Source: an uncultured Chloroflexia bacterium (GTDB taxonomy: Bacteria > Chloroflexota > Limnocylindria > Limnocylindrales > CSP1-4). Taken from it: a stretch of DNA of 64,000 nt. Shown here in pieces: positions 1,249-19,162 of this stretch. The DNA is taken from NCBI GenBank assembly GCA_963768655.1, contig CAVYIM010000008.1:1-64000 (forward strand), in the 5' to 3' direction. Position numbers and translations under genes: made by a program. A model generated the notes under the pieces. It worked only from the letters and a program-made list of their open reading frames with translations. It was not told where the DNA came from and ran no database searches. Positions within the stretch are counted from its first letter, which is position 1, and the number at the start of each line of letters is the position of its first letter.

Positions 1249-1297
1249 TGGTTGAGCGGGTGCCGCTTGTGCCCCGGGAACCCGGACGAAGAAGCCC

Positions 1298-2874: not shown

Positions 2875-2964
2875 CTAAGCGGCCAGTAGCACCTCGACCA
2901 GCTCGTCCACACCCTCAATCACGATGGTTGGTGGAGTGCGTCCGAATCCCTCCGGGCGCGCCAT
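2875..2964 (-). other. Cryptic recombinase-C-terminus-like frame MARPEGFGRTPPTIVIEGVDELVEVLLAA*, overlapping the att core
   Basis: Manual translation; conserved at protein level with 12737..12826 and 19073..19162. Confidence 0.65.
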
Positions 2965-2984
2965 TGACACCTCCGGGCGCGCCA
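2948..2984 (+). repeat. Two tandem att-like cores matching a tRNA-Arg 3' end (2948-2963 and 2970-2984)
   Basis: TCCGAATCCCTCCGGGCGCGCCA resembles T-loop + acceptor stem + CCA of tRNA-Arg (CGGGCGC-G-CCA); second core follows after 6 bp. Confidence 0.75.
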
Positions 2985-3283
2985 CTCTTTCGAGTAGGTC
3001 CCCGAACCCGAGCCTTCGCCGAGGCGCTATACGCCGCGTTTTCCTGAGTGGCTCGCCGGCGACGGCCGAAGTGTCAGATGCCCAGTCCGTCGGTCAGGAT
3101 TGTCAGATGCCCGCCCCGACCAAACTGACGACTTTCAGATGCCCATCGCCCGGCGCTGGTTCTATCGGCCTGGCGCTAGTTCTGTGAGATTCATCGCGCC
3201 AAGGGCGTCAACTACGGCCGCCAGGGAGCTTCTGAGGAGTAGATCTGAGTGTCGGTGTGTCCGCGCTGGCGTGCGATCCTTGG

Positions 3284-3313
3284 TTGACGACTATGTCGGA
3301 TCGGACATATACT
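3284..3313 (+). promoter_or_regulatory. Sigma70-type promoter with operator for the TA operon
   Basis: TTGACG(3284)-18 bp-TATACT(3308); inverted repeat TATGTC-N6-GACATA at 3292-3309; GTG start 7 nt after the -10. Confidence 0.6.
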
Positions 3314-3320
3314 GCCGACC

Positions 3321-3668
3321 GTGAGTGCGGACGACAAGCCGCTGGTCTGGCTTCATGGAGAGGTGAGAACCCCTCCGCTGTCTCAACAGGCACGCATCGA
3401 GATTGGCGTGCTGCTACGGCGGATACAGCAGGGCGAACCTCTCGGGATGCCTGTCTCACGGCCCATGCCCTTGATCGGGAAGCGGTGCCACGAACTACGA
3501 ATTGTGGACGAGGACTCCACTTGGCGGGTCGTCTATCAGATCGATGACGACGCGATCGTAATCGCGGATGTGTTCAAGAAGAAGACGCAGGCGACGCCCA
3601 AAGACGTGATCGAGGCCTGCCAACGGCGGCTCCGCCTGTACGACGAAATCGTCGGCGGAAGGGAGTGA
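3321..3668 (+). CDS. Type II toxin, RelE/ParE/HigB-like (Gp49/DUF891)
   Basis: LGMPVSRPMPLIGKRCHELRI...WRVVY...IVIADVFKKKTQATP signature; overlaps the downstream HTH gene. Confidence 0.85.
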   Translation: MSADDKPLVWLHGEVRTPPLSQQARIEIGVLLRRIQQGEPLGMPVSRPMPLIGKRCHELRIVDEDSTWRVVYQIDDDAIVIADVFKKKTQATPKDVIEACQRRLRLYDEIVGGRE

Positions 3669-3994
3669 ACGCAAAGATGGATCAGAACAAGAAGGATCGC
3701 CTCGAAGGAGCCGGCTGGCGCGTCGGGAACGCCGAGGACTTCCTCGAACTCACCCCGGAGGAGACGGCGTTCATGGAGCTCAAGCTTGCCCTGGCCCGTT
3801 TCCTACGCGACGTGCGCGTGCAGCAGGGGTGGACGCAGGCGCAGACGGCGAAGCGCCTTGGGTCGAGCCAATCGCGATTCGCCAAGATGGAGGCGGCGGA
3901 CGCCTCCGTCTCAGTCGATCTGCTCGTCAAGTCACTGCTGGGGCTCGGAGCGACCCGTGAGCAGGTTGGCCAGGTAATCGCTCGAGCCGCATAA
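3665..3994 (+). CDS. XRE-family HTH antitoxin (HigA-like)
   Basis: WTQAQTAKRLGSSQSRFAKMEA helix-turn-helix; GTGA coupling to the toxin stop. Confidence 0.85.
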   Translation: MNAKMDQNKKDRLEGAGWRVGNAEDFLELTPEETAFMELKLALARFLRDVRVQQGWTQAQTAKRLGSSQSRFAKMEAADASVSVDLLVKSLLGLGATREQVGQVIARAA

Positions 3995-4399
3995 CGCTGG
4001 GCCCTGGCCAGTACACGTCGGGGTGAGCCGATCCGCCTTGTCGACCTGAGCTTCCGACTGTCAATCTGAAGGCCCGGGTCGCTTGCTCTACTTTGTTTCT
4101 CGTTCCGCCTTGGCATCCAAACCTGGCGCGCAGCCAACGAACTTGCCGGCCGAGTCGTGATGCAGGACGGCGCCCGGCTCTTCTGACGTGACGGGCGCTC
4201 AGGCAGGGGCGAGCGCAGATCTCGACGAAGGCATCTTGCCGGGCGATCGCGGCTGGTCCACTGGCGAACCGCCGGCGGATGTCACGACGCACTGGCCGAG
4301 ACTGCGGTTGGATCGCGAACGATCCTGTGCCAGGATCTGTGCCCCGACCGGCTCGAGACAGCAACGCCGAAGCACGAGGACAGAAGAACGAGGCGACGA

Positions 4400-5176
4400 A
4401 TGGCTGACACAACTGCCCCGGCCACCAACAAGCCCATCTGGATCGACCTGGCCAGCTCCGATCCGGCCGCCTCGCGGGAGTTCTACGCGAAGCTCTTCGG
4501 CTGGCAGGTCGAAGTGAACCCTGATCCGCAGTACGGCGGTTACGCGCTGGCAAAGAACGGCGGCCGCGACGTGGCGGGCATCGGCCCCAAGATGATGCCC
4601 GACGCGCCGACAGCCTGGTCGATCTACATTGGCACGCCGGACGCCGCGGATCTGGCGGAGAAGGTGCGGGCGGCGGGCGGCAAGGTAGTCGCCCCGCCTA
4701 TGCAGGTCGGCGACCAGGGCCGCATGGCCGTCTTCCAGGACCCCTCGGGCGCGTTCATCGGGGCCTGGCAGCCAATGGCGATGAGGGGGTTCACGTCCGA
4801 CGCCTCGGGCGCGTTCGGGTGGGCGGAATTGAACGCCCGAGGGCTGGACAAGGCCCTGCCATTCTACAGCGCGGTCTTCAGCTGGGTCCCCAGGATGAGC
4901 CCGATGGGCGAGGGCCAGCCACCGTACACGGAGTTCCTGGTCGGCAGCGAGAGCATTGCGGGTGGCCTGGAGATGAACCCCATGGTCCCGGCCGAGGTGC
5001 CGAGCTACTGGATGGTGTACTTCTTCGTTGACGAGGTGGATGGTTCGTTCCGAAAGGCGATCGAGGCGGGTGCCCGAGAGATGCTGGCCCCGCAGGACTT
5101 CCCCGGTGGTCGTTTCGCGATCCTCGGTGACCCGCAGGGTGCGGCTTTCGGATTGCTCAAGACGACGCCGCGGTAG
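4400..5176 (+). CDS. VOC/glyoxalase family protein (two domains)
   Basis: WIDLASSD..FYAKLFGW, GRMAVFQDPSGA and GRFAILGDPQGA repeats. Confidence 0.9.
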   Translation: MADTTAPATNKPIWIDLASSDPAASREFYAKLFGWQVEVNPDPQYGGYALAKNGGRDVAGIGPKMMPDAPTAWSIYIGTPDAADLAEKVRAAGGKVVAPPMQVGDQGRMAVFQDPSGAFIGAWQPMAMRGFTSDASGAFGWAELNARGLDKALPFYSAVFSWVPRMSPMGEGQPPYTEFLVGSESIAGGLEMNPMVPAEVPSYWMVYFFVDEVDGSFRKAIEAGAREMLAPQDFPGGRFAILGDPQGAAFGLLKTTPR

Positions 5177-5385
5177 CCAGGCCCGTGCCGGGCGCGGGGG
5201 GCCTGCCAGCGATCGGGTACGCTCGTTACCGAGGTGGCGCCACGAGGCGCCGCGGGTACGACCATCGCCCTCATCCGACCCGCCCAGGTCGGTGCAACGC
5301 TGGCCCGGCACGGCCGCGATGCTTACGTTCCGCGACCCTAACAGCAAGCGTGCGATTGCCCGATATGGCATGAGGAGCGCGAACC

Positions 5386-5742
5386 ATGAAGCAATACCTT
5401 CTTAGTGTGGTCACGCCCACCGGCGGGACGCCCCCACTTCCGGAAGTGCTCGGCCCGATCATGGAGCGAGTCGCAGCGATCGACAGGGATCTCAAGGACG
5501 CAGGCGCCTGGGTCTTCTCAGGGGGGCTCGAGGCGCCCAGCAGCGCAACCGCGCTGCGCCTGCAGGACGACGAGGTGCTAATGACGGACGGCCCGTTCGC
5601 TGAGGGCAAGGAGTACCTGGGCGGCTTCTCGATCATCAGGGTCGCCAACCTCGACGATGCGCTCGAGTGGGGCACCGGGCTAGCCCGCGCGATCGGCCTC
5701 CCGATCGAGGTGCGTCAGTTCGTCGACGACGAGCTTTCCTGA
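5386..5742 (+). CDS. YciI family (DGPF-motif) protein
   Basis: TDGPFAEGKEYLGGF motif; RBS GAGGAG. Confidence 0.9.
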   Translation: MKQYLLSVVTPTGGTPPLPEVLGPIMERVAAIDRDLKDAGAWVFSGGLEAPSSATALRLQDDEVLMTDGPFAEGKEYLGGFSIIRVANLDDALEWGTGLARAIGLPIEVRQFVDDELS

Positions 5743-5874
5743 CCGTTCAGCGCTCTCGCTCCGACCATTCAGGTAGGTGCTCCCCTTCCCACCTGCCCTT
5801 CCCGGCCGTCTACTCCAACTTTCGTCGTCACGCGTGCGGCGCACGCCGAGCGCCAGCTACCCCCGCTCAGCGCC

Positions 5875-5942
5875 CTACCCGGAGATCTTGCGGCGGTAGA
5901 TGACCATGGCGAAGACGTACGCGACGATGAGGATGCCGACAC
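5875..5942 (-). pseudogene. C-terminal remnant of an ABC-2 (DrrB-like) permease
   Basis: Translates VGILIVAYVFAMVIYRRKISG*, abutting the kinase stop codon. Confidence 0.4.
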
Positions 5943-8117
5943 TCAGGCACTCCGTCCGAATAGGGCGCCGACGACGTCGGCGAGGTCGAACGCGCTGAAG
6001 GGCTTCGCCAGCGGCCGCGGTGCGCCAGCCGGGAGCGAGCCCGCCTCATAGCCAGACATGAACAGGACCGGCAGTCCCGGTCGGATGGCGGCGATACGCT
6101 CCGCGAGCACCGGGCCGCTCATGACCGGCATGACGACGTCGGTGACGAGGGCGTCGAACGCACCCGGGTCCCCTGTTGCGGCATCGAGAGCAGCCATAGG
6201 ATCGCCGAACGAGAGCACGCGGTAGCCACACTCTTGCAGGGCGCGCTCCGCGAACAGGCGCACGGCGGGCTCGTCCTCGACGAGCAGGATCGTCTCGGTC
6301 CCGCCGCGCTGGCCGTGACCGACCTTGGGCACGCTCGGCGCCTCGACCGCAGCCTCTTTGAGTGCTGGCAGGTAGATGCGAAAGACGCTGCCGCCGCCGG
6401 GGTTGCTTTCGACGTCGATGTAACCACCGGCCTGCTTCACGATGCCATACACGCTGGCGAGGCCCAGGCCGGTGCCCTGGCCTCGGGGCTTGGTCGTAAA
6501 GAACGGCTCGAACAGATGCGCCTGCGTGTTCTCGTCCATCCCGACGCCGGTGTCGGACACCGATATGAGGACGTGGCGGCCGGCCTGCGCCCCTGGATGC
6601 GATCCGACGAAGATCCTGCTCAGCGTCACGGGCTTCACGGCGATGCCGAGCGTTCCGCCGGCAGGCATCGCATCGCGGGCGTTCGCGGCGAGGTTGAGCA
6701 GGACCTCCTCGATCTGGACCCGGTCGGCCAGAACGCGGGACACCTTTGGGCTCGCGTCGAGACTGACGAAGATGTCCTCCCCTACGAGGCGGCGCAGGAG
6801 CGCCACGGAGTCGCGGGCCAGGGCGGCCAGATCGAGAGGCGTGGGGTGCACCTCCGCTCGGCGGCTGAAGGCGAGCAGGCCGCGCGTCAACTGGGCGGCT
6901 CGTTCGGCCGCATGTTCGATCTCTAGGACGTCCGATCGGCTCTCGTCACCCGGCGGATGCTCGGCGAGATGGAGTTCGGCGAACCCGTGGATGGCCGTCA
7001 GCAGGTTGTTGAAGTCGTGGGCCACCCCGCCCGCGAGGCGCCCGACCGCCTCCATCTTCTGGGCCGCCGCCAGCTGCTCCGCGAGGGTGTGTGGCTCGGT
7101 TATGTCCTGGATTAGCCCGTCATATGAGAGAAGCGTGCCCTCGGGGCCGAATTGGGGCACGCATGTGTTGCGGACCCACCGGATCCGGCCGTCCTTGTGA
7201 ACGATCCGATGCTCCAGCGGGCCCACCTGTTCCCCCGCCACGATCCGGCGAGTCTGCTCACGGACCGCCTCGCGATCCTCCGGGACGATCACGCGCAGCC
7301 ACAGATGAGGGTCCTGCCACATCTCGTCGGATGAGTAGCCGGTCACCGCCACGCAGCCCGGGCCGTAGACGGTGGAGCTGGCCCGGCCGTCCTGTACGGT
7401 CACCGTGAATACGAAGTCCGTGATCGTCTCGGTGATGCGACGGTACCGCTCTTCACTGGCCTGAAGCTCAGAGGTGCGTTGGGCGACTCGACCTTCGAGC
7501 TCGTCGCGCGCAGCCCGGAGCTGCTCGCGCATGGCCGCATCCTCGATCGAGATGGCGGACTGGCTGGCCATGGCCGAGAGCATGTCGAGATCGGCCTGAT
7601 CGAACTCGCGATCCCCGGGCCGATTGGATGCCACGACGACGCCCAGGGCCCGGTCGCCGTACAGGATCGGGGCGACCATCATCGAACCCGGTCCGGTGGC
7701 CCGTCGTCGCTCGTCGACCCGAGGCGACTCTCGCGGGTCGCGAACGTTCCCCGTCGAGAGAGTGGCCTGGCGATGGTCGATCACCCAGCCCGCGAGCCCC
7801 TCCATCAGCTCGTCGAAGTCGATGTCGGTGAACCGATTGGCGGCCGGGCCGGCGCTGTAGTTGCCCGTCACCGAGCGCGTGTCTGTGTCGATGGCGAACA
7901 GATTGACTCGCATGGCCGGGAGCGCCTCGGCCACGACCTCCACGACGCGCTGCAGCAGCGTCTCGAGCGTCTCCCCCGCGACCTGCGAACTGCTGATTCG
8001 ATACAGGGCCTGGGCCTTGGCGAGAGCGGCTTCGATCTCGGCTCTCCCTAACGCCGGGTTGCCTGCCTGCCCGTGGCCTGGCGTGGCCGCAGCGCGATCA
8101 TCGCCACTTGTGTCCAT
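5943..8117 (-). CDS. Hybrid sensor histidine kinase (GAF-PAS-HisKA-HATPase-REC)
   Basis: AGGVAHDFNNLL H-box, FEPFFTTK, GTGLGL, ILLVEDE...TDVVMP; start placed at MDTSG. Confidence 0.9.
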   Translation of the reverse strand: MDTSGDDRAAATPGHGQAGNPALGRAEIEAALAKAQALYRISSSQVAGETLETLLQRVVEVVAEALPAMRVNLFAIDTDTRSVTGNYSAGPAANRFTDIDFDELMEGLAGWVIDHRQATLSTGNVRDPRESPRVDERRRATGPGSMMVAPILYGDRALGVVVASNRPGDREFDQADLDMLSAMASQSAISIEDAAMREQLRAARDELEGRVAQRTSELQASEERYRRITETITDFVFTVTVQDGRASSTVYGPGCVAVTGYSSDEMWQDPHLWLRVIVPEDREAVREQTRRIVAGEQVGPLEHRIVHKDGRIRWVRNTCVPQFGPEGTLLSYDGLIQDITEPHTLAEQLAAAQKMEAVGRLAGGVAHDFNNLLTAIHGFAELHLAEHPPGDESRSDVLEIEHAAERAAQLTRGLLAFSRRAEVHPTPLDLAALARDSVALLRRLVGEDIFVSLDASPKVSRVLADRVQIEEVLLNLAANARDAMPAGGTLGIAVKPVTLSRIFVGSHPGAQAGRHVLISVSDTGVGMDENTQAHLFEPFFTTKPRGQGTGLGLASVYGIVKQAGGYIDVESNPGGGSVFRIYLPALKEAAVEAPSVPKVGHGQRGGTETILLVEDEPAVRLFAERALQECGYRVLSFGDPMAALDAATGDPGAFDALVTDVVMPVMSGPVLAERIAAIRPGLPVLFMSGYEAGSLPAGAPRPLAKPFSAFDLADVVGALFGRSA

Positions 8118-8406
8118 AGCGAGGGTTCGGCACCTACCTGGTCGGAAGAGGTTGCGGCGGCGGAGTCCCCCTTCGCAGCTGTCGCAATGAGCTGCGAGGA
8201 GTCTAGCGCGACCCGTCGCCGCGGCCGGCGTCTTTCCGCACCGGCCCACGCTCGCATCTGGTCCGGTCGCGACTCCGCAGATACGGGAGCTAGATGGCAG
8301 GAAGGCCCGGTCGCCTTCCTCGAGGCCCCTCCGGGAAATCGGCGCACAGCCGAACTCCCTTGAGCGGAGGACGCTCCGGCGCTCGCCACCTACCCACGAA
8401 CAGGTC

Positions 8407-9671
8407 TCTATGCAGAGGGTCTGAGTGTCAAGGGCTTTCGCGCGGGGGGGTGCCCGTTTGAGCGAGGGGAATGCGCTTCTCATGTCTCTATTGCCTCCTC
8501 GGAGGGGAGGACTCGGTTGGGTGGGAGACAGCGGTGGCCCAAGTCATAGAGGGTCGTCAAGCGACCAGACCTGATGTGGGGCCTCCCGCTCGGAACGGCT
8601 CCTGGCGCGTGAGGATGTACCAGATCACGCCGGCGAGCTCGCGGGCGAGCTCTACCCGAGCGATCTTGCTGCCTCGCTGCTTGCCGAGCCGGCGCTTGGT
8701 GTGTTCGTAACGATCGTGATATCGAGGATCACGCGATGCGGTGGTGGCGGCTTCGATGAGCGCCCAGCGCAGGTACTTGGGTCCGGTCTTGGCGAGGGGT
8801 CCACGCCGATCGGATAGGCCGGACTGGTACACAGCGGGGCAGAGCCCGGTGTACCCGGTGAGCTGCTTGGGGCCCGCGAACCGGCCGATGTCGCCGATCT
8901 CGGCGGCGATCGTGTACGCGAGCACCCAGCCGATCCCTGGGACGGTCCGCAGCAGGGGCACGTACCGATGGTCGGCACCCGTGGCGCGGAGTTCAGCCTC
9001 GATCTCGTCGATCTTCGCCTCGAGATCGTCCACGAGGCGCAGGCTCGTTCGGAGCGTCGTCGCCCAGGGCTCTGGGATTGGCATGGAAGCGAGCAAGTCT
9101 CGCCCGCGCATCCCGAACAGGTCGGACACCGGCACCGACTGGCCAAACGCGATGAGCGTGGCGTGGATCCGGTTCTTGAGCGAGGTTCGATAGTGAACGA
9201 GGTACAGCCGGAAGCGGGCTCGCTCGCGTTCGGCGCGGATCGAGGGATCGGGCAGCCAGATCGCAGGCACCAACTCCCGTCGGGCCAGCTCGGCGAGTAC
9301 TCGCGCGTCGATCTTGTCAGTCTTGGCGGCCAGTGGGGCCAGGCCCCTCGCTTTCGCGGCGTCGGCGATCTCGACGTCCCAGCCCAAGCGCTCCAGGGTG
9401 TCGTGGACGAAGCGGGCACCGTTCATCGACTCGATCGCCGCCTCGACGGGCTGGCCGTAACGGGCAATCCGCGCCGTCAGCGTGCGGAGAGCGTCGGCAT
9501 CAGGATGCACGGCGAGGATCTCGACCGTCTGACCTGTCTCATCGAGGACGTGTACATCGAGCTTCTGGCGTGAAAGGTCCAACCCGGCGTATAACATCCC
9601 ATGGGCCTCCTGGTGATTGGTTCCGTTGAGAACCCACGATTTCACCAGCGGGGCCCTCTGAACCGTCTATG
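8407..9671 (-). mobile_element. IS110-family (IS1111-like) insertion sequence
   Basis: CATAGA core at both ends (8407-8412 and 9666-9671); subterminal inverted repeat CAGAGGGTC (8413) / GGCCCTCTG (9652-9660); about 145 bp of non-coding DNA after the transposase stop; outward-facing TTGACA near the end. Confidence 0.75.
8557..9597 (-). CDS. IS110 family transposase (DEDD RuvC-like)
   Basis: YAGLDLS, AIES, KTDKIDA, TVPGIG, EIGDIGRF and YTGLCP..YQSG motifs. Confidence 0.95.
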   Translation of the reverse strand: MLYAGLDLSRQKLDVHVLDETGQTVEILAVHPDADALRTLTARIARYGQPVEAAIESMNGARFVHDTLERLGWDVEIADAAKARGLAPLAAKTDKIDARVLAELARRELVPAIWLPDPSIRAERERARFRLYLVHYRTSLKNRIHATLIAFGQSVPVSDLFGMRGRDLLASMPIPEPWATTLRTSLRLVDDLEAKIDEIEAELRATGADHRYVPLLRTVPGIGWVLAYTIAAEIGDIGRFAGPKQLTGYTGLCPAVYQSGLSDRRGPLAKTGPKYLRWALIEAATTASRDPRYHDRYEHTKRRLGKQRGSKIARVELARELAGVIWYILTRQEPFRAGGPTSGLVA

Positions 9672-9997
9672 TCGCCGGCCTCGATGAGCTTGCCGGCACC
9701 CGCGGCGGCGCTGATGAGGGTGCGGTTGCGCGCGATCGAGTTCTCCAGCGCCAGGGTCTCGATGGCAGCGGTCTCCAGCAGGCGCTGTGCACCCTCGATG
9801 CTGCGCAGCCCGGCGAAGTCGTAGATGGTCGCGACGCTGCGGGCCTTGCGCCGGTGCATCCCGCCGATCCGTCTGGACTCGGCCGCTTCATCGGCCGAGT
9901 CGGGGTCGTGCCAGTAGCAGACGCTCTTGCCCCGCAAGGCCGGGGCCCGGCAGGCGAGGCCGTCGGGCATGAGGATGGTGCAGCCGCGGTTTACCAT
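9672..9997 (-). pseudogene. Small Cys/His-motif mobile-element protein interrupted by IS110
   Basis: C-x-DGLACRAPA-x-CYWH motif; the frame runs into the IS end at ...EAGDI. Confidence 0.55.
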
Positions 9998-10076
9998 CGT
10001 TTACCTCTGGTATACCGCGGGGTCACCATCTCGCCATAGTGTCGATCCCGGAGGGCTCCGCAGCGGGCTCGGCCGT

Positions 10077-10415
10077 TCATGGCTGGGCCGCCTTTTCGAG
10101 CTCCTCCTGGGCCGCGATCGCCTCGCGCAGGATGATCCGCAGGTTGGCCTTCTCGTGGTCGTCGAGCCCATCGAGCACGCCCGATGTCTGGGCCGCGTCT
10201 GCCGCGTGAGGCGACCCCGCCACCAGGGGCAAACGATGGGAACGCAGAAGCATCGCCGCGGGCTCGTACGAGGGCGTCCTGCGGGAGACGGCTTCGAGGG
10301 CCGCCACGTTCGCGAGCAGGGCCAGAGTCGGCTCATTGGCCAACTGCGGCCACGATCGCCGCGCACGACGGCCCGTGTCGGCCGACGGCGAAGCGTGTGT
10401 TGTTCGTCTAGCCAT
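10077..10415 (-). CDS. Hypothetical protein
   Basis: ATG overlaps the end of the methyltransferase; operon-like position. Confidence 0.45.
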   Translation of the reverse strand: MARRTTHASPSADTGRRARRSWPQLANEPTLALLANVAALEAVSRRTPSYEPAAMLLRSHRLPLVAGSPHAADAAQTSGVLDGLDDHEKANLRIILREAIAAQEELEKAAQP

Positions 10416-11641
10416 CGATGCGCTCCGCCGTCAGGCCGCTGAACCGCTCCCAGCGCCAAAGGACCACGTCGGCATAGATCGGGTCGATCTCGATCCCGGC
10501 ACAGATCCGGCCGGTCCGCTCGCAGGCGATGAGGGTCGAGCCTGAGCCCAGGAACGGATCGAGTACGAGATCGCCGGGCTCGGAGCTGTTGGCGATCGCC
10601 CGCTCCATCAACGCCAGGGGCTTCATGGTCGGGTGGAGCGGCGCATCGGCGGGTCTGGCTATCTCCCAGACGTCACCCTGATCGCGATCCCCGCACCAAT
10701 GATGGCTCGCTCCCTCTCGCCAGCCATACCAGATCGGCTCATATCCGCGTTGGTAGTCGGCGCGGCCGATGACGAAGCGGTCCTTGGCCCAGACGATGGT
10801 GTCGGACCAGTGGCCGCCCTCCTCGACGAGGACCCGCGAGACGAGCGGCATCTCCTTGCTCGACATGCAGCAGTAGATCGCACCCTCGACGCCGGCCAGC
10901 AACGTTCTCGCCCAGGCCCGCACGAAGGCTTCCCAGGCGATCGGGTCCATCGAGTCGTTGGCGATGCGGCGTCTTCGAGACCCCCGCTGGTGGCCGCCGT
11001 GGTCCCCGATGCTGACGTTGTATGGCGGGTCAGTGAAGACCATGCCGGCATGCTTGCCGGCCAGTGCCCGTTCGACGTCTTTCGGGCTTGGTGGCGTCGC
11101 CGGCCAGGAGGCGATGCTCACCTGGAGCCCACAGCTCTCCGGGCTTGGTCCGAGGTTCCCGGGTCGCCTCTTCGAGAGCGGAGTCGAGGTCGAAGTTCTC
11201 CGGGCGTTCGGCCTTCTCGCGGGTCTCCAGTCTGCGGAGTAGGTCGGCGATCTCGTCCTCTCCGAACCCCGAGAGGGAGAGATCGATGGTCGGGCTGGAT
11301 TGCAGGTCAGCCAGGAGCCTGGCCAGGAGCTGCTCGTCCCAGGAGCCGGAGATCCGATTGAGCGCCAGGTTCAGGAGGCGGGCCTGCTCGGCCGAGAGGT
11401 CCAGGTAGGTCACAGGGACGGTGGTCAGCCCCAGCCGGCGCGCGGCAACCAGACGCTGGTGACCCCCGATGACGGTGCCGTCCTCCTTCCGCGCCAGGAC
11501 CGGCTCGACGAAGCCGAACTGGCGGAGGCTGCGCGTGAGCGCTTCGAGCTCCTCCTCGCTGATCCGTCTCGGGTTCGCGGGATCGGCGCGGAGCTGGTCG
11601 ATCGGGACCTGCTCGACCGCCAGGAGCGTCGTGCCGGTCAT
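10408..11641 (-). pseudogene. ParB-N domain + N6/N4 DNA methyltransferase fusion, frameshifted
   Basis: NPRRI..FGFVEPV..IGGHQR (ParB); TDPPYN, HPTMKP and LDPFLGSGST (MTase); extra A near 11080-11082 in GDATKPE/DVER. Confidence 0.85.
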
Positions 11642-11739
11642 GCCGATCTGACCCTTGCTGCGGCCAGCCACTCATCGCGGCCTTCGATCGGAATGCGGCA
11701 GGCGGTTAACGCGGGTCCGTCACCCTCCGGGCGCGCCAC
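11638..11739 (-). other. Cryptic frame VARPEGDGPALTACRIPIEGRDEWLAAARVRSA*, with att core at 11723-11738
   Basis: Manual translation; its TGA overlaps the ParB-MTase ATG (ATGA). Confidence 0.6.
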
Positions 11740-11784
11740 TTACTCGGGTAGGTCAATGGCAACCCGTTGGCGTAGGTTGAGAAG

Positions 11785-12291
11785 TCAGGGGTCGAAGCGC
11801 CACCGCGTAGCGCCGCCCGGCTCAATAGTTAGCACGCCGAAGACCGTTGTCGGAGCGACAGCGTAGAGGTCCCATGGCGGAGGGCCGGCGCTCGGCGCAC
11901 TGAATTCGTATGTGAAGGCCCCATCTTTGACGGTGGCCGGCCAGCCCTGGTCCGCGTAGCGTTTCGCGAGTCGCTCGAGGGTGCTGTCGTCCGTCACTCG
12001 TTCAGCTATACCCTCGACGACGAGGTCGATGCCCGTCAGGGACATTGAGATCACGCAGTTGGCGTTCCCGGCGAGGTTCTGGCTCTTGCGAGTCCCGGCG
12101 CCACTCACGAAGTAGATCTTGCCGCTATCCCAGATTGCGCCAACCGCCGCGACATGTGGACGGCCGTCCGGGCGGGTCGTCGCAAGGAATGGTGTCTGGG
12201 TCTTGGGTTTGGCCGACTCGAGTGCCTCCAGCGCCCGCGACCACGGGATAGGATCGAGGCCGTAAAGATCGGCGAGGTTCTTCTGTTTCAT
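11785..12291 (-). CDS. Pyridoxamine 5'-phosphate oxidase-like (FMN/F420 split-barrel) protein
   Basis: FLATTRPDGRPHV...RKSQNL..N..C motif. Confidence 0.85.
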   Translation of the reverse strand: MKQKNLADLYGLDPIPWSRALEALESAKPKTQTPFLATTRPDGRPHVAAVGAIWDSGKIYFVSGAGTRKSQNLAGNANCVISMSLTGIDLVVEGIAERVTDDSTLERLAKRYADQGWPATVKDGAFTYEFSAPSAGPPPWDLYAVAPTTVFGVLTIEPGGATRWRFDP

Positions 12292-12497
12292 GTCGCTGCC
12301 CCCCAACGAGGTCCGTCGGATTGGGCCGCGACAGACGGTCCCAATATCCCCTTGAAGTGGTCCCGATCAGCATTGCCCATGCCGGGGTTGACGTAGTTTG
12401 GCGCAAGCAACTCGTCGACGAGATGGACCTTGCCGCCCTGCAAGACCTCGGTGATGAAGCGGCTGACAACGGCCTTGTTCTCTACCGATGACGCCAT
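12288..12497 (-). pseudogene. Truncated SnoaL/ester-cyclase family gene
   Basis: ENKAVVSRFITEVLQGG..VDELLAPNYV N-terminus; similarity lost after about 52 aa. Confidence 0.6.
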
Positions 12498-12736
12498 AGC
12501 GTCCTTTCTGGGTTGGTGACCCGCCCGGGGCGGTCGGTCTCGCTCTTGGCCCTGCGCGGCGGTCGAAGCGACCGTTATGGAGACGCCGCGCTGGTGGGAG
12601 ATATTGCTCCCTGCCTCCTCCCGGTCGGCGGAGTATGCACGGCTCGACCCAGGTCGAGTAACGAAGATCCACCTGCCGGGCGTTGGTGCCAGTGTGCCTG
12701 TTGGGTGCCATTATTCCGTGCGGGGATAGGGCAGAG

Positions 12737-12826
12737 CTACGCGGCCAGTAGCACCTCGACCAGTTCCTTAGTGCCCTCAATCACGATGGTTGGTGGAGTG
12801 CGTTCGGTTCCCTCCGGGCGCGCCAC
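12737..12826 (-). other. Cryptic frame VARPEGTERTPPTIVIEGTKELVEVLLAA*, with att core at 12810-12825
   Basis: Manual translation; homologous to 2875..2964. Confidence 0.65.
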
Positions 12827-12918
12827 TCATTCGGGTAGTGACTGAAAACCCAAAGGCATAGGCCCCGGGTGAGCGCATGCATGTGAGATTCGGCCGTCAG
12901 TAGCTGGAGAGTGCGCGG

Positions 12919-13679
12919 CTACCAAGGGTCCACGGAACCTCGAAGGTCGAAGCCGAGGCTGGTGTAGGCAGCGGTGCGCTTGGAATGCATTCGCGCCAGG
13001 ACCGGGATCCTGTAGTCCACGTAGTCATGTACCTCGACCCGCGTCTTGCCCTCGACCGGCCTGAGCACGCGGCCGACGTACTGGACGATTCGGCCCCGGA
13101 AGGCGATCGGAAACGCTACAAACAGCGTGTCCAGCGGCGGACAATCAAAGCCCTCGCCCAGGAGACTGCCGGTGGCCACGAGCAGCGCGCCATCTCCGGG
13201 CTGCGTCGCTGCGAGTCGATCGACGATCGCTCGTCGCTCTTTTCTGCCGATGCCTCCGACCAGGACGTCTGGGCGAACTCCCATTTCCTCAAGTCGATCG
13301 CGGATAAGGTCCACATGCTGCTTCCATTGAGAGAGGACGAGGCAGTTGCGGCCCGACTGCACGGCCGCAGCGATGTCGCCACAGACCTGGCGAGTCCTAG
13401 CGTCATCCTCTACCAGCGCGCGGAAGGCGGCCTGGATGGTGGGAGGCACCTCGCTTGTGCCGGTGACCGCACTTGTGTGGTTGGTTGGATGGACGACTAG
13501 AGTGCGCACCACGCCCGCCGTCGCGCCTGGATCCCAGCTCATCCGATGTCGCACCGGCCCGCAGTACATGGTTATCAGTCCCTCGAGCCCGTCTCGGCGG
13601 TACGGCGTGGCGGTCAGTCCCAACCAGACCGGCGCGCCGATCTCGCGGACCACGCGCTCGAAGGTAACGGCAGGGACGT
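12919..13679 (-). CDS. AEP-primase/SF2 helicase copy 2, exon 2 (helicase C-terminal half)
   Basis: HVPAVTF...LGLTATPYRRDG (motif III), GEGFDCPPLD, QYVGRVLR (motif VI). Confidence 0.9.
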
Positions 13680-15897
13680 GTAGGGTCGGCGGCAGGACGC
13701 CGTGCGGCCTTTCGGCCGTCGGTCTTCCCACCGCCGCCCTCCGAACCGGACGTGCACGTTCTCGCGCATCCGGCTCTCCACGAACACACGAAGCAAGCGT
13801 TGTCATGCGAGCGCCTCTGCCAGCCAGCCGAGGAACGCCGGGTCCCCGCTCGATGCGCGCCGATGGCGCCAGGGAGCTTGGTCGGCGGGAGCCTCGGCCC
13901 ACGGGTCCGGAATGAACTGGCCCCGGTGGCGGTAGCGCAGGATGCGCATCGTCGCCGGGTTGTACAGGATCAATCCGCCGGCCCTGATCCTGTCCTTGCC
14001 GTAGTAGCGCCGACGGACCTGCTTCCAGGTCAACCGCGGGTGCTTCTTGCGAAGCCAGCGGATCACCCGCCACCAGGCGTAGTAGCCCAGGTAGGCGAAC
14101 GTCCGTTTGGCCGCGGTCCAGCGGAAGTAGGCCGCCCAGCCCCGAAGAACGGGGTTGAGGTTGCGCAACAGCGAGGCGAGATCCAGGCTGGTCGTGGAAC
14201 GGCCGGTGAGAGTCTTCACCCGTCGTTTCACCGAGGCCAATGCCTCGTCCGACGGATGCGGGAAGACGGGGCGTCGATGGCCCTTGGGCTTGCGGACAAT
14301 CCGCACACCGAGGAACACGAAGCCCGCGTCGATGTGAGCCAGACCGGTCTTCTCGGGCTTCAGATGGAGCCCGATTGACTCAACGCGCTCAGAGAGCTGC
14401 CCAAGGAGCGCCTCCGCCTGCTCGCGTGTCCCCTTGACGAGGACGACGAGGTCGTCAGCGAACCGGACAAGCCGGTACGTCGGCTGACCCTTTCGACGCA
14501 GATACTGGCGCAAACCCCGATAGCGGCTCATCGCCGCCCAGTCCGCCGCGTAGCGGCGATCAAGGGCGGTGAGCGCGATGTTCGCCAGCAGGGGCGAGAT
14601 GATCCCGCCCTGTGGCGTGCCCGTGACGGTCCGCTCGAAGCGTCCGTTCTCTCGCATCACTCCGGCCCGAAGGAACGCCCGCACGAGCGCCAGGACGCGA
14701 CGGTCTCCGATCCGGCGGCTGACCTCGGCCATCAACTGGCCGTGGTCGATCCGGTCAAAGCACGCCTCGATGTCCGCCTCGATGACCCACTCGTAGGCCG
14801 AGGGATCTTGAGCGAAGTGGACAATCTCGGCGATCGCGTCATGTGCCCTTCGGGCGGGCCGATAGCCGTAGGACGAGGGATAGAAGTCGGCCTCGAAGAT
14901 CGGCTCCAACACGAGTTTCAGGGCCATCTGGACGACCCGGTCGCGGAGCGTCGGTATCCCGAGGTAGCGGAGCTTGCCGCCACGCTTGGGGATCGCCCGC
15001 TCTCTGACCGGGACCGGCCGGAAGCGTCCGGAACGCAACTCGCTACGCAGTTCGGCCAGGAACGGCTCAACGCCGTGCCTGTGCTCAATGTGGTAGCGAG
15101 TCGTGCCGTCGATCCCGGCTGTACGTGACCCCTTGTTCTGGCTCACCCGCGACCAGGCCACGGCGAGCGTGGCCGGATCGCAAACCAGGTTCCACAGATC
15201 GCAGAACCTGCGCTCGGCGTCATCCGACGCCCACTTGTGCAGCTTGCGTTCGATGTGGAGTACCCGCTCCCAGGCCTCTTCGAGACCCAGACTCGGTGCG
15301 TCGGCATTCACCGGCGACCTCCTCCCATCAAGCGAACCTGCGTATTCGCTGCCGCCCTTCCCCATGTGGCCGGCTTTCCCGGCCTCCGAGTACTGCGGCG
15401 GCTCCGCCACGCTCCGGCAGTAACAGCGGACGGTGCACCTGCCCTGAGCCCGATCGCTCGGACCCGACGGGCACCGCCGGAGCGCTTCCCACGTTGACCA
15501 CTCACCGGTTGGCAGGATCGGTGTCCAGCTTTACCCCTGTGGCATCGCCAGTTGGCACCGCAACAAGCCGACTGGCCTCGATCATCCAAGTCACCGCTGA
15601 ACGACCGAGACGGCCTCCACTCACCGCGGAGGTTCGAGCACCACAACAGCCCATAGCCGCCAGGTTCGGGGCTGGTGACGAGTCGAGGGGCTTCAACCAC
15701 TGGTTCGGTTTCCCTGCACCTGTCTGCCTTGCTTGCGGGCACGGCACGCTGGCGGCGGCCGTCCCTACGTTGTCGGGGCTGCTCCCGCCCTTCTCCCCAC
15801 CTCGGGAGTCGGGCTGCCCCCAGCTTCTTCCGGCCGTCGCGGCGACCGGAGGTGGGCCTTTCATCCCACCCGGTGAAAATGGCGCCTCGTGGCGCAC
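13680..15897 (-). mobile_element. Group II intron (2218 nt) inserted in helicase motif II
   Basis: 5' GTGCG at 15897; domain V GAGCCGGATGCG..CACGTCCGGTTC near 13743-13777; domain VI ending CCGACCCTAC at 13680. Removal restores GAC GAA TGC CAC C/AC GTC (DECHHV) in frame. Confidence 0.93.
13803..15311 (-). CDS. ltrA: Group II intron reverse transcriptase/maturase (no HNH domain seen)
   Basis: AGIDG, LGIPTLRDR, SYGYRP, DIEACFDRI, GTPQGGIISPLLANI, RFADD, LNPVLRGW; RBS GGAGGAGG before GTG at 15311. Confidence 0.93.
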   Translation of the reverse strand: MNADAPSLGLEEAWERVLHIERKLHKWASDDAERRFCDLWNLVCDPATLAVAWSRVSQNKGSRTAGIDGTTRYHIEHRHGVEPFLAELRSELRSGRFRPVPVRERAIPKRGGKLRYLGIPTLRDRVVQMALKLVLEPIFEADFYPSSYGYRPARRAHDAIAEIVHFAQDPSAYEWVIEADIEACFDRIDHGQLMAEVSRRIGDRRVLALVRAFLRAGVMRENGRFERTVTGTPQGGIISPLLANIALTALDRRYAADWAAMSRYRGLRQYLRRKGQPTYRLVRFADDLVVLVKGTREQAEALLGQLSERVESIGLHLKPEKTGLAHIDAGFVFLGVRIVRKPKGHRRPVFPHPSDEALASVKRRVKTLTGRSTTSLDLASLLRNLNPVLRGWAAYFRWTAAKRTFAYLGYYAWWRVIRWLRKKHPRLTWKQVRRRYYGKDRIRAGGLILYNPATMRILRYRHRGQFIPDPWAEAPADQAPWRHRRASSGDPAFLGWLAEALA

Positions 15898-17536
15898 GGT
15901 GGCATTCGTCGACGATCACGAACCCATATCCAGAGGTCAGTTCGCGGATGTCCTCCCGGCGCGCCAGCGACTGCACCATCGCGACATCGACGACGCCCCG
16001 CAGACGGCCAGCTCCGCCACCAAGCGTGCCGATCTGGCGGCGTTTGAGACCGAGATGCTCCTGCAGGCGCTCGCGCCACTGCTCGGCGAGGGGCTGGCGA
16101 TCGACGAGTACGAGCGTGCTGGTCTCCCGCTGGGCAATCAGGGCGCAGCCAACGACTGTCTTGCCTGTGCCCGGCGGTGCGACAAGAACGCCGAGCTCGT
16201 GACGGCGCAGCTCATCGAACGCGACTTGTTGGTCGGCGTCGAGCACAGCGCCGAGGCGAACCTCAATGGTCCGGGCGGCCCAGGCGGTCTCACGTACTTC
16301 CAGATGGCTGCCGGCCTCGACGGCAAGAGACACAGCAGCGTCACGCAGGCCCCGCGGCAGCAGGAGCTGGTCGATCGACTCTTCGTAGCAGCGGATCAGC
16401 CGCGGCGTGTTCCAGGTCGAGAGGCGCAGGCGCTCCTTCTCGTAGTACTCAGGGTTGTGGAGAGAGGCCAGATGCTTGAGAGCCGCGACGAGTGCAGGAG
16501 GTAGGCCGATGCGATCAATCGCGAGCATCGCACCGGCCACGGCCAGAATCTTGTCGGGCGGTTTCGGTCCGTCCCCGCGGAACGGGCGACGGTAGGTCGG
16601 TTCGACCGGGCCGGTTGCAACCTCGCGAAGCTGCTGCGCGAGACGGTTCACCCCGCTCACAGAGGTCCGTTGGAGACCCGAGAGGAAGGCGAACTGATCG
16701 TCGTGCGGCGTAAGGGAGTCGTCGAGGAACACGGTCGTGCCGCCTTTACGACAAGTGCCCTGAAGCGGAAGTGCAATCAGGTTGCCGAACGAGCCTTTCG
16801 GCATGAAGTCCTGCGCCGGGAACAAGCGGTCATAACTCGCGAGGTCGAGTTCGGCGCGGATGGTCATTGCTTCTCGGAGCAGATGGGCGCCGATCCTGCG
16901 TGCGGCGGATGCTGGAACTGCTCCCGCGAAAAGGATCCAAACATGGGCGCCGTCGCCCGAACGCGAGCGCTCGAGCGCGGCGTCGAACCCCAACGCCCGG
17001 GCGGCGTCCTGGTAGGCTCGCGCGTCCAGCGGCCAGGTCGACCCGTCGAAGTCGCACGCCAGCATGCGGCAACTGTCATTTGGCAGCAACGGATACAGAC
17101 CGACGTGAATGCGGCCAGACAGATGGGCCTCGATGACTTCGTCGCTGAGCGGGAGATATGTGCGGTCAGGCTTTCTTGCGTTGGCTGGCCCGCCCACAAC
17201 CGCAGGGCTCCAGCCCGACTTGCCCGTGCGAGAGTTGTCCCATCGAGTGGCGTAGACATCGTCACGCCCGTAGAACAGGGCTCTAAACACCCCGATCTTC
17301 GCCGCGGCCGACGACCTGGCATCGAGCTTTGGAAGGGGAGCGACATCACCATCGCCGAAAAGGGTCGTGCCGCCGGCAGCGAGCTCCGGAGTCCACCGCG
17401 GAGGCGGAGTATCGACGTTGTCGGCGCGCGTTCCGATCATCTCGCGAAGCCGCGCGTTCTCTGCCCGGAGAAGATCGGTCTCGCGCTCGAGGTCGTCCCG
17501 TGAGCGCACAGGAATGTGGCCTGAACGATCAGCCAC
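15898..17536 (-). CDS. AEP-primase/SF2 helicase copy 2, exon 1 (spliced product 799 aa)
   Basis: ACDFDG, ERSRSGDGAHVW and GNLIALPLQ (AEP); APPGTGKT Walker A; VIVDECH Walker B at the exon end. Confidence 0.9.
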
Positions 17537-17584
17537 TGGCTGCGTGGGTGCCGCTGGTGCCCGGGAACCCGGACCAACAAGCCC

Positions 17585-18856
17585 TCATGGGCAAAGGGAT
17601 CCGACCGGAATGACGTGCACCCCGTCGGGACGCGTGTAGGCGTAGCCGGTGGAAGTGATTACTCCCAGCGCGAGCGGCGGCCCGATCTTCGAGGTATCGA
17701 CGCGTTCGTCGGCCAGCTTGCGCAGGTGCTTAGCGGCTTCATCGACCTGGTTGAGGCCGATCGTGACCTCGAACGCGGCCCAGCGACCATCGGCAAGCTC
17801 GATGACCGCGTCTGCTTCCAGCTCGGTGTTGTCCCGGTAGTGGAAAACGGAGGCTTCGATCGCCTGGGCATATACGCGCAGGTCCCTGATGACCATGTTC
17901 TCGAAGTAGAACCCGAGTGTGTTGGGATCGCGCAGCAGAGCCTCATCGTTGATTGCGAGTGCGGCGACTGCAAGAGATGGATCGACGAAGTACCGAATTG
18001 GTGCTCCCCGCAACCGACTACGAGAACGTAGGTTCGGACTCCAGGCCGGCAGCTCGTCGATCACCATCAGGCGCGCGAGCGTGTCGAGGTAGCCTGAAAC
18101 GGTCTCCGGTTTTCTCGTGCCGTCGGAGCCGTTCACGTCCGCGGTGATTGTGTTTAGTGACGCCGCGGACCCGACGTGTCGGGCGTAGGACGAGAGGAGC
18201 TTCCGGACGAGCGCCGAATCGCGTTGGCGGCCACCGCTTGCTCGGTCCACGTCGGCCCGGGCAATCTCGCCCACATAGCCGCGCATCGCCCGCAGCGCAC
18301 GAAAGGTCGAGAGTTCCAGCAGCTGAGGCCAGCCGCCTCTGGAGACCAGGTCCGCGACATCGCGGATGGTGAGCCCCGAGTCGCCCGCACGGACGGGTGC
18401 CCCATCGAGGACTTCGGCGAACGAGACCGTTGCGGTCGATCGCCCGAGTTCATAGATCGTCATCGGACGCATCCTCAGCCGCAGGAACCGTCCGGCGCCT
18501 ACATGTCGCGTCTCGTCGTCAGGTGGTACGGCTGAGCCTGCCAGGATGAAAAGGCCGGTTACTCCGCGATCGTCGACGGCTCTGCGTACGGCATCCCAGA
18601 CATCCTTGACTCGCTGCCACTCGTCGATCAGGCGGGGATTGTCCCCCACAAGAGCCAGCGATGGGTCCAGCTCGGCTGCGGCACGGGCTTGGGCATCCAC
18701 ATCAAAGCGCACCTGGCTGCGTGCGATCTGGCTGGCTGTCATGGTTTTGCCGACCGACTTGGGCCCCTCGACGAGCACGGCGCCAACGCTTGCGAGCGCT
18801 TCGCGTAGCTCCGAGTCCACTACGCGCGGTCGATACTCGGGCATTCGCTCCTTCAC
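17585..18856 (-). CDS. AAA_14 + DUF4143 ATPase, copy 2 (intact frame)
   Basis: GPKSVGKT, LIDEWQ, GGWP, YFVDP and EADAVIE...AFEV motifs. Confidence 0.9.
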   Translation of the reverse strand: MKERMPEYRPRVVDSELREALASVGAVLVEGPKSVGKTMTASQIARSQVRFDVDAQARAAAELDPSLALVGDNPRLIDEWQRVKDVWDAVRRAVDDRGVTGLFILAGSAVPPDDETRHVGAGRFLRLRMRPMTIYELGRSTATVSFAEVLDGAPVRAGDSGLTIRDVADLVSRGGWPQLLELSTFRALRAMRGYVGEIARADVDRASGGRQRDSALVRKLLSSYARHVGSAASLNTITADVNGSDGTRKPETVSGYLDTLARLMVIDELPAWSPNLRSRSRLRGAPIRYFVDPSLAVAALAINDEALLRDPNTLGFYFENMVIRDLRVYAQAIEASVFHYRDNTELEADAVIELADGRWAAFEVTIGLNQVDEAAKHLRKLADERVDTSKIGPPLALGVITSTGYAYTRPDGVHVIPVGSLCP

Positions 18857-19072
18857 ACCCCGTTGCCGGGCCGCTCATGTCTTTGGCCCTCGGATTGTGA
18901 CCCGTAGCTCCGCTCAGGTCAAGCGGGCCAAGGGGTCCTTAGCAATGGCGTCGGGAGGTCGTTAGCAACGCCATCAGGCAGTCGTCTGCAATCTTCGCAA
19001 AGCAGTCTGCCGAACGGGTCGCGTCGCCGGGCCCGGTTGGGCGATGCCCTCGCGGCGAACTGCGCGGATGGG

Positions 19073-19162
19073 CTAAGCGGCCAGGAGAGCCTCGACCAGC
19101 TCGTCCAGCCCATCGATCACGAAGGTTGGTGGCGTGCGTTTGCATCCCTCCGGGCGCGCCAA
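19073..19162 (-). other. Cryptic frame LARPEGCKRTPPTFVIDGLDELVEALLAA*, with att core at 19146-19161 (rightmost array boundary)
   Basis: Manual translation; conservative substitutions relative to the other two LLAA copies. Confidence 0.65.

Follow-up and report, generated by a model that had tools for sequence, protein, structure and literature searches.

Tandem cassettes bounded by copies of a tRNA-Arg 3' end, with apparent displaced tails of a serine recombinase, in an uncultured Chloroflexia bacterium

We analysed the first 64 kb of contig C8 (hereafter the window) of an assembly from an uncultured Chloroflexia bacterium (genome G000: nine contigs, 3.37 Mb, 88.6% complete; other G-numbers denote relatives of the same genus and L-numbers fetched loci), in which successive gene blocks are delimited by direct repeats of the 3' end of tRNA-Arg(TCG). 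The repeat is the 15-mer CCTCCGGGCGCGCCA, present in five exact copies, all on the plus strand, and extended by a preceding C at four of the five sites (it is missing at 2970). These copies are attachment-site (att) cores corresponding to the last 15-16 nt of the tRNA gene, and they lie in the window as follows.

2949..2963, plus strand: att core, the last 15 nt of tRNA-Arg(TCG)
2964..2969, plus strand: spacer TTGACA, 6 bp, separating two cores (flank comparison)
2970..2984, plus strand: att core, exact 15-mer
11724..11738, plus strand: att core, exact 15-mer
12811..12825, plus strand: att core, exact 15-mer
19147..19161, plus strand: last att core, exact 15-mer, with the presumed chromosomal flank to its right

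The feature is real and non-random. When up to two mismatches are allowed the window holds seven matches, a number reached in none of 100 dinucleotide shuffles (mean 1.46), and the two inexact ones lie at 15952 (one mismatch, within the helicase gene of a TOTE defence pair and kept in that gene in G003, G006 and G024) and at 63527 (two mismatches). The whole assembly contains seven exact copies, all forward, and no copy of a reversed control pattern. The two beyond the window are on contig C9, at 287333-287347 and 294718-294732. ARAGORN placed 51 tRNAs in the assembly, among them tRNA-Arg(TCG) at C9:287272-287347, whose final 15 nt are the repeat; the tRNA scan found none inside the window. 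The second C9 core lies 7.4 kb beyond the tRNA copy and 707 bp short of the contig end. A first-pass annotation, made from the letters of the window, had noticed five same-orientation repeats and none elsewhere in it and had taken them for a tRNA-Arg 3' end; both observations hold.

The window appears to continue an array that begins on C9. On C9 the last open reading frame (ORF) covers the C-terminal 211 codons of an SF2 (TOTE) helicase, and on C8 the first covers the N-terminal 416 codons of an AEP-primase/helicase; there is no third TOTE copy in the assembly. C9:294644-295439 is 92.8% identical to window positions 12737-13533, the homology opening at the stop codon of the recombinase tail at 12737..12823 (see below), and window positions 1-2705 are 94.4% identical to 16289-18995. 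The simplest reading would be that the assembler split a single TOTE gene pair between C9 and C8; with the end of C9 and the start of the window both inside one broken TOTE helicase gene, the probable order of the array, of at least five tandem integrated elements, is tRNA, A, B, C, D, E, flank.

C9:287348-294717: element A, between the tRNA core and the second C9 core
C9:294733 to window 2948, minus strand: block B, with TOTE copy 1, followed by core, TTGACA and core
2985..11723, both strands: block C (Pfam, PADLOC); left part matches G016 from the core, right part matches G015 and G030
11739..12810, genes on the minus strand: block D, 1.07 kb; right part 86% identical to a stretch of G001 that ends at a degenerate core
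12826..19146, minus strand: block E, with TOTE copy 2 (Pfam, PADLOC); colinear with an intact G024 cassette core to core

The cores had been proposed to fall at boundaries between gene blocks, and comparison with relatives bears this out: block homology to other genomes begins or stops at the repeat. To the right of the last core (19162-21800), clear orthologues were found just in G029 (81%) and G036 (75%), on core-less contigs, and this synteny shows no empty site.

What precedes the cores is more telling. The ~85 bp to the left of the cores at 2949, 12811, 19147 and C9:294718 are mutually homologous and, read on the minus strand through the core, encode ARPEG-x3-TPPT(I/F)VIEGLDELVEALLAA followed by a stop codon. 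This is the main orphan recombinase tail, a'; a second kind, class 6, precedes the core at 11724.

2875..2961, minus strand: a' tail of 28 codons, ARPEGFGRTPPTIVIEGVDELVEVLLAA, then stop; its first 13 nt lie within the repeat, and the same peptide ends the intact recombinase homologue P0012
11638..11736, minus strand: class-6 recombinase-like tail, ARPEGDGPALTACRIPIEGRDEWLAAARVRSA, then stop; its TGA overlaps the ATG of the ParB-methyltransferase gene (ATGA)
12737..12823, minus strand: a' tail, ARPEGTERTPPTIVIEGTKELVEVLLAA, then stop (translation, alignment)
19073..19159, minus strand: a' tail, ARPEGCKRTPPTFVIDGLDELVEALLAA, then stop (translation)

Judged from these translations, the stretches at 2949, 12811 and 19147 are displaced native C-termini of a CcrB-like large serine recombinase (SR), and that at 11724 is of a related kind. 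Over nine distinct copies of the a' tail, diversity at codon positions 1, 2 and 3 is 0.157, 0.186 and 0.302, against 0.676 in the 30 nt past the stop, so that the tail shows a coding pattern and its conservation ends at the stop codon. The idea that the flank is a decayed tRNA copy was rejected, as just the T-loop part is tRNA-like and the rest has a coding pattern ending at the stop. We also fetched the arrays of 12 relatives, which together with G000 gave 49 tabulated cores in 13 genomes. Their left flanks comprise 13 a' tails (12 by pattern and one, G003 13442, by translation), three of class 6 (that at 11724 included; ...ARPEGVGRAL..IPIEGR(D/E)EW..AAA(R/K)(V/A)RSA), 11 copies of a 46-bp tRNA half starting from the anticodon loop, and six real tRNA genes. 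The class-6 peptide is kept in G030 and G015 and resembles the C-terminus of the SR homologue P0056. A tblastn census of the fetched stretches found SR homologues in three of the 13 genomes (intact in G016, as fragments in G008, broken in G000), and across these genomes tails outnumber SR genes. The same method detected no SR remnant in blocks B to E.

The first-pass annotation had remarked that none of the complete blocks encodes an integrase. This is correct within the window, and no tyrosine integrase (PF00589) occurs on C8 or C9, the ten matches in the assembly all being on C3-C7. It fails for the array, which has an SR gene in element A; moreover, four of the five window cores are preceded by what reads as a severed SR 3' end, and 'integrase-less' therefore describes the present state of the blocks and not their origin.

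Element A carries the SR gene on the reverse strand, 70 bp from the tRNA, together with a RepSA gene and a frameshifted C5 methylase gene adjoining one for a TdeIII-type endonuclease. The SR of G000 is a homologue of the G016 SR, with 93.4% DNA identity and six indels (1, 1, 1, 8, 1 and 1 nt). In G016 the 569-codon minus-strand frame is intact, crosses the core, continues into the tRNA half and ends ...VSVARPEGFEPPTL and stop (...SMVSVARPEGFEPPTL and stop), so the SR gene straddles the att site and crosses attP. Its product has the Pfam domains Resolvase, Recombinase and Zn_ribbon_recom, and the best curated family is CcrB, at an NCBIfam score of 82.3 bits against a cut-off of 900 (CcrC, 40.8 against 900). 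There is no other close SR in the assembly, the next best matches being 24-32% identical; given its completeness of 88.6%, an intact copy may still lie in the missing part.

The C-termini of homologous recombinases, read in the best 57 of the 100 listed, reflect this arrangement. Twenty-two end in ...PEG(F/S/L)EPPTx, i.e. the antisense of tRNA-Arg, 12 in ...PPDGxEPPTQALGRPRSIx and three in ...PEVS(E/G)..., reading into an insertion sequence (IS) end, while nine bear a ...G(V/L)xxLVxxLxAA tail within one uninterrupted protein and 11 are truncated or otherwise different. The homologue P0012 ends ...VARPEGFERTSPTFVIEGVDELVEALRAA, and its final 15 residues match, without difference, those of the orphan tail that closes the G016 element on its far side. 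In an AlphaFold model of this protein (mean pLDDT 80.5, pTM 0.40) the core-encoded residues 546-556 form a low-confidence linker and 563-572 a predicted helix; the model gives no clue to where that helix docks.

Other loci show the same overlap with the target gene. Scanning metagenome contigs with the SR alignment yielded 14 loci, of which seven were examined: six reach the gene end, all as integrated forms, one is cut by the contig end, and none has the long tail. In L030 and L038 the tRNA overlapped by the SR frame, on the opposite strand, is tRNA-Arg(TCG); in L035 and L036 a sister clade (~51% identical to P0012) overlaps tRNA-Arg(CCT) in the same manner. Members of the L035/L036 clade end ...APPDGxEPPTQALGRPRSIH, and some of its database members also bear the ...LVxxLLAA tail. 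A scan of genome contigs with the core plus 8 nt of SR flank returned just the G008 and G016 loci, both already found.

Element A and the G016 element are 96.6% identical over 4.2 kb while rpoB of the two genomes is 88% identical, which points to recent horizontal spread of element A. The RepSA gene of A (C9:289243-290265) is N-terminally short and scores 332.7 bits in Pfam against a cut-off of 34; that of G016 is full length at 439 bits. In NCBIfam, RepSA stays below the equivalog cut-off (283.7 against 700). No match to FtsK_SpoIIIE (an FtsK/TraB-like transfer gene) was found in either element among ORFs chosen by a filter on third-position GC content, and no second small resolvase of the DsiA kind was seen in either.

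From these observations we consider it likely that the array is a tandem stack at tRNA-Arg(TCG) whose founding type of element uses the core-crossing SR, and that blocks B to E are recombinase-less derivatives or hitch-hikers that keep the attR-side half-site. The founding element would carry its CcrB-like SR gene on the reverse strand directly at the tRNA-side junction (attL). Because the frame crosses the core, integration would cut the gene, stranding its last ~22 native codons (...TPPTIVIEGLDELVEALLAA) at the far end (attR), and the integrated gene would end instead in six tRNA-antisense codons (...FEPPTL). Blocks B to E would then resemble cis-mobilizable elements (CIMEs) in retaining the attR-side half of the site. 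Newcomers would enter at the tRNA-proximal site and push older elements outward; an SR-headed run could excise between its attL and any downstream tail-plus-core, carrying blocks along, and such excision would rebuild a full-length SR gene. We infer that the blocks were mobilized by the SR. As the SR of G000 is broken and has no close paralogue in the assembly, the stack in this genome appears inert and is probably frozen and decaying.

The blocks themselves carry the following genes and features, with contents much as the first-pass annotation had listed them.

1248 to beyond the contig start, minus strand: TOTE copy 1 AEP-primase/helicase, block B (Pfam)
2068-2748 and 1298-2062, minus strand: TOTE copy 1 ATPase, frameshift-split into an AAA_14 part and a DUF4143 part, respectively (Pfam)
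2985..3245, plus strand: R1 module, the non-coding left end of block C, with three copies of GTCAGATGCCC and two of GGCGCTnGTTCT; no Rfam match
3321-3668, plus strand: HigB-like gene (Gp49/HigB-like), block C
3665-3994, plus strand: helix-turn-helix protein, partner of the HigB-like protein, block C
4400-5176, plus strand: glyoxalase (VOC), block C
5386-5742, plus strand: YCII, block C
5943-8483, minus strand: hybrid histidine kinase, block C
8557-9645, minus strand: IS110 transposase, block C
10408-11121 and 11030-11641, minus strand: ParB-methyltransferase, frameshifted, block C
11785-12306, minus strand: PNPOx-like (oxidoreductase) gene, block D
12367-12780, minus strand: 137-aa ORF without family match, block D
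12826-12881: R2, the 56-bp left end of block E
15898-17536 (exon 1) and 12919-13680 (exon 2), minus strand: TOTE copy 2 AEP-helicase, block E
13681..15897, minus strand: group II intron inside the TOTE helicase gene (5' GTGCG; Rfam RF00029; Pfam RVT_1 and GIIM)
13803-15410 and 13680-13778, minus strand: reverse transcriptase/maturase ORF and domain V of that intron
17585-18856, minus strand: TOTE copy 2 ATPase, block E
19412-21781, minus strand: hybrid histidine kinase in the presumed chromosomal flank (Pfam)

Blocks B and E both hold the TOTE/PDC-S01 pair, an AAA_14-DUF4143 ATPase (PADLOC PDC-S01, E 6e-65) and an AEP-TOTE primase fused to an SF2 helicase. The intron boundaries in block E were set by the uninterrupted helicase copies of G024, G003 and G006, all without the intron, which splits the helicase DECH motif (..VIVDECH|HVPA..) and is present in a single copy in the assembly. 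Three genes of G000 are broken by a single frameshift: the ParB-methylase (10408-11671, minus strand; one 410-aa ORF in G030), the TOTE copy-1 ATPase (1298-2748, minus strand) and the C5 methylase (C9:291826-293243, plus strand). Elsewhere in the window, 36150-39704 (plus strand) and 49792-53925 (minus strand) encode two very large paralogous proteins, of 1184 and 1377 aa. Each shows 11 matches to RCC1 repeats (Pfam RCC1_2), and the DNA of both is highly repetitive; beside the second lies a gene for a VanY-type carboxypeptidase with Ig-like domains.

An integron-like stack of non-autonomous cassettes had been put forward in the first-pass annotation. On such a platform, cassettes lacking promoters would be captured at one fixed site by a resident integrase. 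The cassettes are indeed ordered, co-oriented and repeat-delimited, and their cargo varies among the 13 genomes. Yet no IntI-type gene resides beside the tRNA (C8 and C9 lack any PF00589 match), the blocks span 1-9 kb with 2-10 genes on both strands, at least one has its own promoter-like site, and the repeats are a tRNA 3' end. The array is not an integron, and any such platform is scarcely credible here.

Cores of this kind are widespread in the genus: at least 13 of its 36 genomes have two or more on one contig and strand, and up to 11. The 4.2-kb TOTE defence cassette is a discrete unit, lying between cores in more than one species. G024 has an intact TOTE pair adjoining the tRNA, whose left end is again the 56-bp R2 and whose right end is again the a' tail, and which aligns with the window from core to core; the same gene pair occurs in G003 and G006 within other ends. 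Pairwise identities among the copies in G000-B, G000-E, G024 and G003 are 94.0-95.4% and star-like, and a recent internal duplication giving rise to B and E was rejected on these grounds. Against rpoB identities of 88-93% among these genomes, element A stands out clearly (96.6% against 88%) and TOTE modestly.

The R1 module (~275 bp) likewise begins exactly at the core in seven cassettes of differing cargo, i.e. block C and six in five relatives, and the first kilobase of block C matches G016 from the core onward. In the relatives it lies just right of the core in L015, L010, L012, L019, L017 and L022; its three GTCAGATGCCC copies are ~30 bp apart. It may be a protein-binding array, putatively of arm sites or of a transfer or partition locus. 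A promoter scan gave one site, downstream of R1 and ahead of the higB-like gene.

These ends bear on a second explanation, pure serial decay, by which every block descends from a complete island whose recombinase gene has since been deleted, and is now an immobile relic that happens to keep its end repeats. The sole SR of G000 with its six indels, the frameshift-split ParB-methyltransferase, C5 methyltransferase and one TOTE ATPase, the want of another close SR (next best 24-32%) and the truncated SR fragments in the G008 array all agree with it. Independent decay should, however, leave ragged left ends, whereas TOTE has the same R2 end at the core twice in G000 and in G024, R1 starts exactly at the core in its seven cassettes, and tblastn detects no SR remnant in B to E; we therefore rate pure decay as possible, if rather unlikely. 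The first-pass annotation had offered movement in trans or serial decay, and each was partly right: the G000 copy looks decayed (the six SR indels and three frameshifted genes), and the TOTE cassette acts as a discrete unit across species.

The 46-bp tRNA halves raise a third possibility. Tyrosine-integrase elements typically show such a half, running from the anticodon loop and accompanied by a conserved arm, and the repeats might be att sites of P4/pSAM2-type integrases whose genes are lost or lie elsewhere. Eleven of the 49 cores, all in relatives, are preceded by the half and a conserved arm, the R1 repeats at the start of block C look like arm-type protein-binding sites, and G000 has pSAM2-like islands with tyrosine integrases at a tRNA-Lys and near a tRNA-Leu. 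In G000, on the other hand, neither half nor arm exists besides the tRNA itself, C8 and C9 have no PF00589 gene, and four of the five window cores bear SR tails instead, which makes classical tyrosine-integrase islands an improbable source of this array.

Several observations on these elements may be added. Cassettes with the 46-bp half (e.g. L009, L011, L013, L017 and L019) have a conserved hairpin arm before it and carry Kelch, Fic, HipA, TOTE and peptidase genes; no integrase gene was found in such cassettes of the relatives. The largest array, G003:C1:822608-918533 (L009-L014), has 11 cores over 96 kb, two of them back to back without spacer, as also in G016; its cargo comprises Fic, IS21, TOTE, HipA, a Schlafen/AlbA_2 protein, nucleotidyltransferases and a nested RepSA plus tyrosine-integrase element. 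The pSAM2-like islands of G000 (C3:510186-514400 and C6:182400-189739) carry a tyrosine integrase and a RepSA homologue 76-81% identical to that of A; one adjoins the tRNA-Lys and the other is ~7 kb away from tRNA-Leu(CAA). Both islands, as well as a site near tRNA-His on C2, repeat a 50-60-bp stretch that lies close to the right end of A (C9:294557-294619).

An IS481-like element of the relatives (rve transposase, terminal inverted repeats TGTCTTGAGTCGCGAC...; L021:2979-4178, L026:2862-4070, the contig ends of L024, and a 323-bp derivative in L015) inserts at a constant point behind the 15-nt core, its left ends lying in six contexts. It sits between two cores in G022, G032 and G016, as if flanked by a 15-bp target duplication. 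G010 apparently has just tRNA, IS, core and conserved flank, a nearly empty site. One might accordingly ask whether the 15-bp repeats are target-site duplications made by such a transposon at the tRNA 3' end. The 1.3-kb rve-transposase element between two cores in G022 and G032, the G010 element with one of its ends at either end of the contig, each beside a core, the 323-bp derivative between cores in G016 and the constant insertion point speak for this, as does the spacer of the window's double core, TTGACA, which resembles the right terminus of the IS. That spacer may be a footprint of the element (right terminus ...CTGACA in relatives), a weak and post hoc match. Since G000 contains no copy of the IS or its terminal repeat, and since duplication explains at most the 2949/2970 pair and not blocks of 1-9 kb with recombinase tails, we hold it to be a very remote explanation for the array.

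A number of points weigh against the SR-based stack that we favour. Neither an excised circle nor an attP junction nor an empty site was observed, and the 14 metagenome loci are integrated forms or stop short of the gene end. Public sequencing runs, available as short contigs (the best held 21% of sampled words), gave no piece bridging a core to another partner and are uninformative on circles; the joints listed from them have sides below 30 nt and lie inside a histidine-kinase gene. The C9-C8 join is read from two contig ends, with no sequence across it. By inspection of the flanks, B, C, D and E have left ends (R1, R2) unlike the SR-side half-site (CACTAACC...), so recognition of single cassettes in trans is doubtful. 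Other arrays of the genus are full of right ends with the 46-bp tRNA half (the 11 of 49 above), without integrase, and the SR model leaves these unexplained. The codon pattern of the tails may date from complete SR genes and is no evidence of selection inside recombinase-less blocks. For TOTE, identities of 94-95% barely exceed the 88-93% of rpoB, and vertical descent with homologous exchange is possible. Finally, the indels of the G000 SR might be assembly errors, yet one is of 8 bp and none is in a long homopolymer.

A bolder extension can be put forward tentatively, namely that the orphan tails serve as a hitch-hiking ticket. As the SR gene crosses attP, excision from its attL to the tail-plus-core of a downstream block would let that block's own tail rebuild the full-length gene; defence cassettes such as TOTE would be selected to keep a working 22-codon tail and would travel as trains of variable length. 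The tRNA-Arg locus of the genus would then be a platform for exchanging cassettes, and swapping the native helix for FEPPTL would switch the SR between integration-competent and resting forms.

The arrangement is known in few bacteria, and its closest precedent is the set of tandem islands behind the tmRNA gene ssrA of Dehalococcoides with their DsiB serine recombinase (McMurdie et al. 2011, PMC3146451). In the excerpted text of that paper, the integration module has six genes (DsiB, a small DsiA recombinase, RecF-like, ParB, Mom-like and a large protein), 15 module-less islands are read as cis-mobilizable elements, and dsiB is suggested to be complete only on the circle or beside another island; its overlapping ends were found divergent and the role of the overlapping C-termini was left open. 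As far as this description goes, both systems have tandem islands whose limits are a small-RNA gene and 3'-end direct repeats of that gene, a ~540-aa CcrB-like recombinase on the reverse strand beside attL with its 3' end overlapping attL, ParB and methylase genes tied to the recombinase (here the ParB-methyltransferase follows the class-6 tail), many islands without an integration module and an insertion point inferred in the T-loop; the hosts apparently share a phylum, given the Chloroflexia label here. By the same description they differ in target (tRNA-Arg(TCG), and tRNA-Arg(CCT) in the sister clade, rather than the tmRNA gene), in repeat length (15-16 nt against 20), in the head element, which here has RepSA and in which a small DsiA-like recombinase was not seen, and in the displaced tail, here a conserved 22-residue peptide also attached in intact homologues, whereas the DsiB ends are divergent. 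DsiB is likened to the SR by its described anatomy and a shared weak relationship to CcrB, not by sequence.

Other systems share single traits. Blocks B to E are att-bounded and without recombinase or transfer genes, as CIMEs are. ICESt1 and the CIMEs of Streptococcus thermophilus, with cis mobilization and accretion, were reportedly described by Pavlovic and colleagues in 2004; in outline, they too are blocks that lack integrase and transfer genes and are piled up next to an autonomous element at a single site; that system uses a tyrosine integrase at the fda locus, whereas the blocks here keep part of a recombinase coding sequence. A recombinase gene altered by integration is also known from phage Mx8, whose tyrosine recombinase gene contains attP (intP/intX). 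Integration likewise splits or re-tails the integrase gene of SSV-type archaeal elements, as excerpted from PMC7253208, but there a tyrosine recombinase gene is halved as a whole and here the last ~22 codons are exchanged. Among AICEs, the integrative and conjugative elements of actinomycetes, 19 of 144 have serine recombinases, eight of them in one tRNA-Leu gene, tandem AICEs occur at a tRNA-Arg gene, and serine-recombinase integration into tRNA genes is called rare, according to excerpts of Ghinet et al. 2011 (PMC3218068). The pSAM2-type AICEs, as there outlined, likewise pair RepSA as replication initiator with a site-specific recombinase and sit at a tRNA 3' end; the host here is a Chloroflexia bacterium and not an actinobacterium, and no FtsK/TraB-like gene was found among the scanned ORFs. 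SCCmec and psi-SCC of staphylococci (CcrAB/CcrC), with support from excerpts of PMC3146451, resemble the array: both rely on a large serine recombinase, carry short direct repeats where a conserved gene has its 3' end, and form tandem composites in which some cassettes lack a recombinase. CcrB is the best NCBIfam match of the SR. The SR is nevertheless not a Ccr orthologue (82 bits against 900), its target is a tRNA gene and not rlmH, and its gene crosses the att site. A literature search, limited in reach, found no publication on this tRNA-Arg system or on a serine recombinase whose displaced tail is conserved.

For the genus, comprising soil and peat bacteria, the locus is a natural collection point for defence genes, with cargo that includes TOTE/PDC-S01, restriction-modification systems, HigBA, HipA, Fic and Schlafen-like genes. 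Large serine recombinases specific for tRNA-Arg, with short defined sites, could serve as integration tools. The function of the gene piece past the att site was left open in the excerpted Dehalococcoides work, and the tails described here bear on it. As the displaced peptide is conserved and is also attached in intact homologues, one can test whether the tail swap switches recombinase activity and whether a retained tail lets recombinase-less cassettes ride along. The most interesting question is whether the retained tails function.

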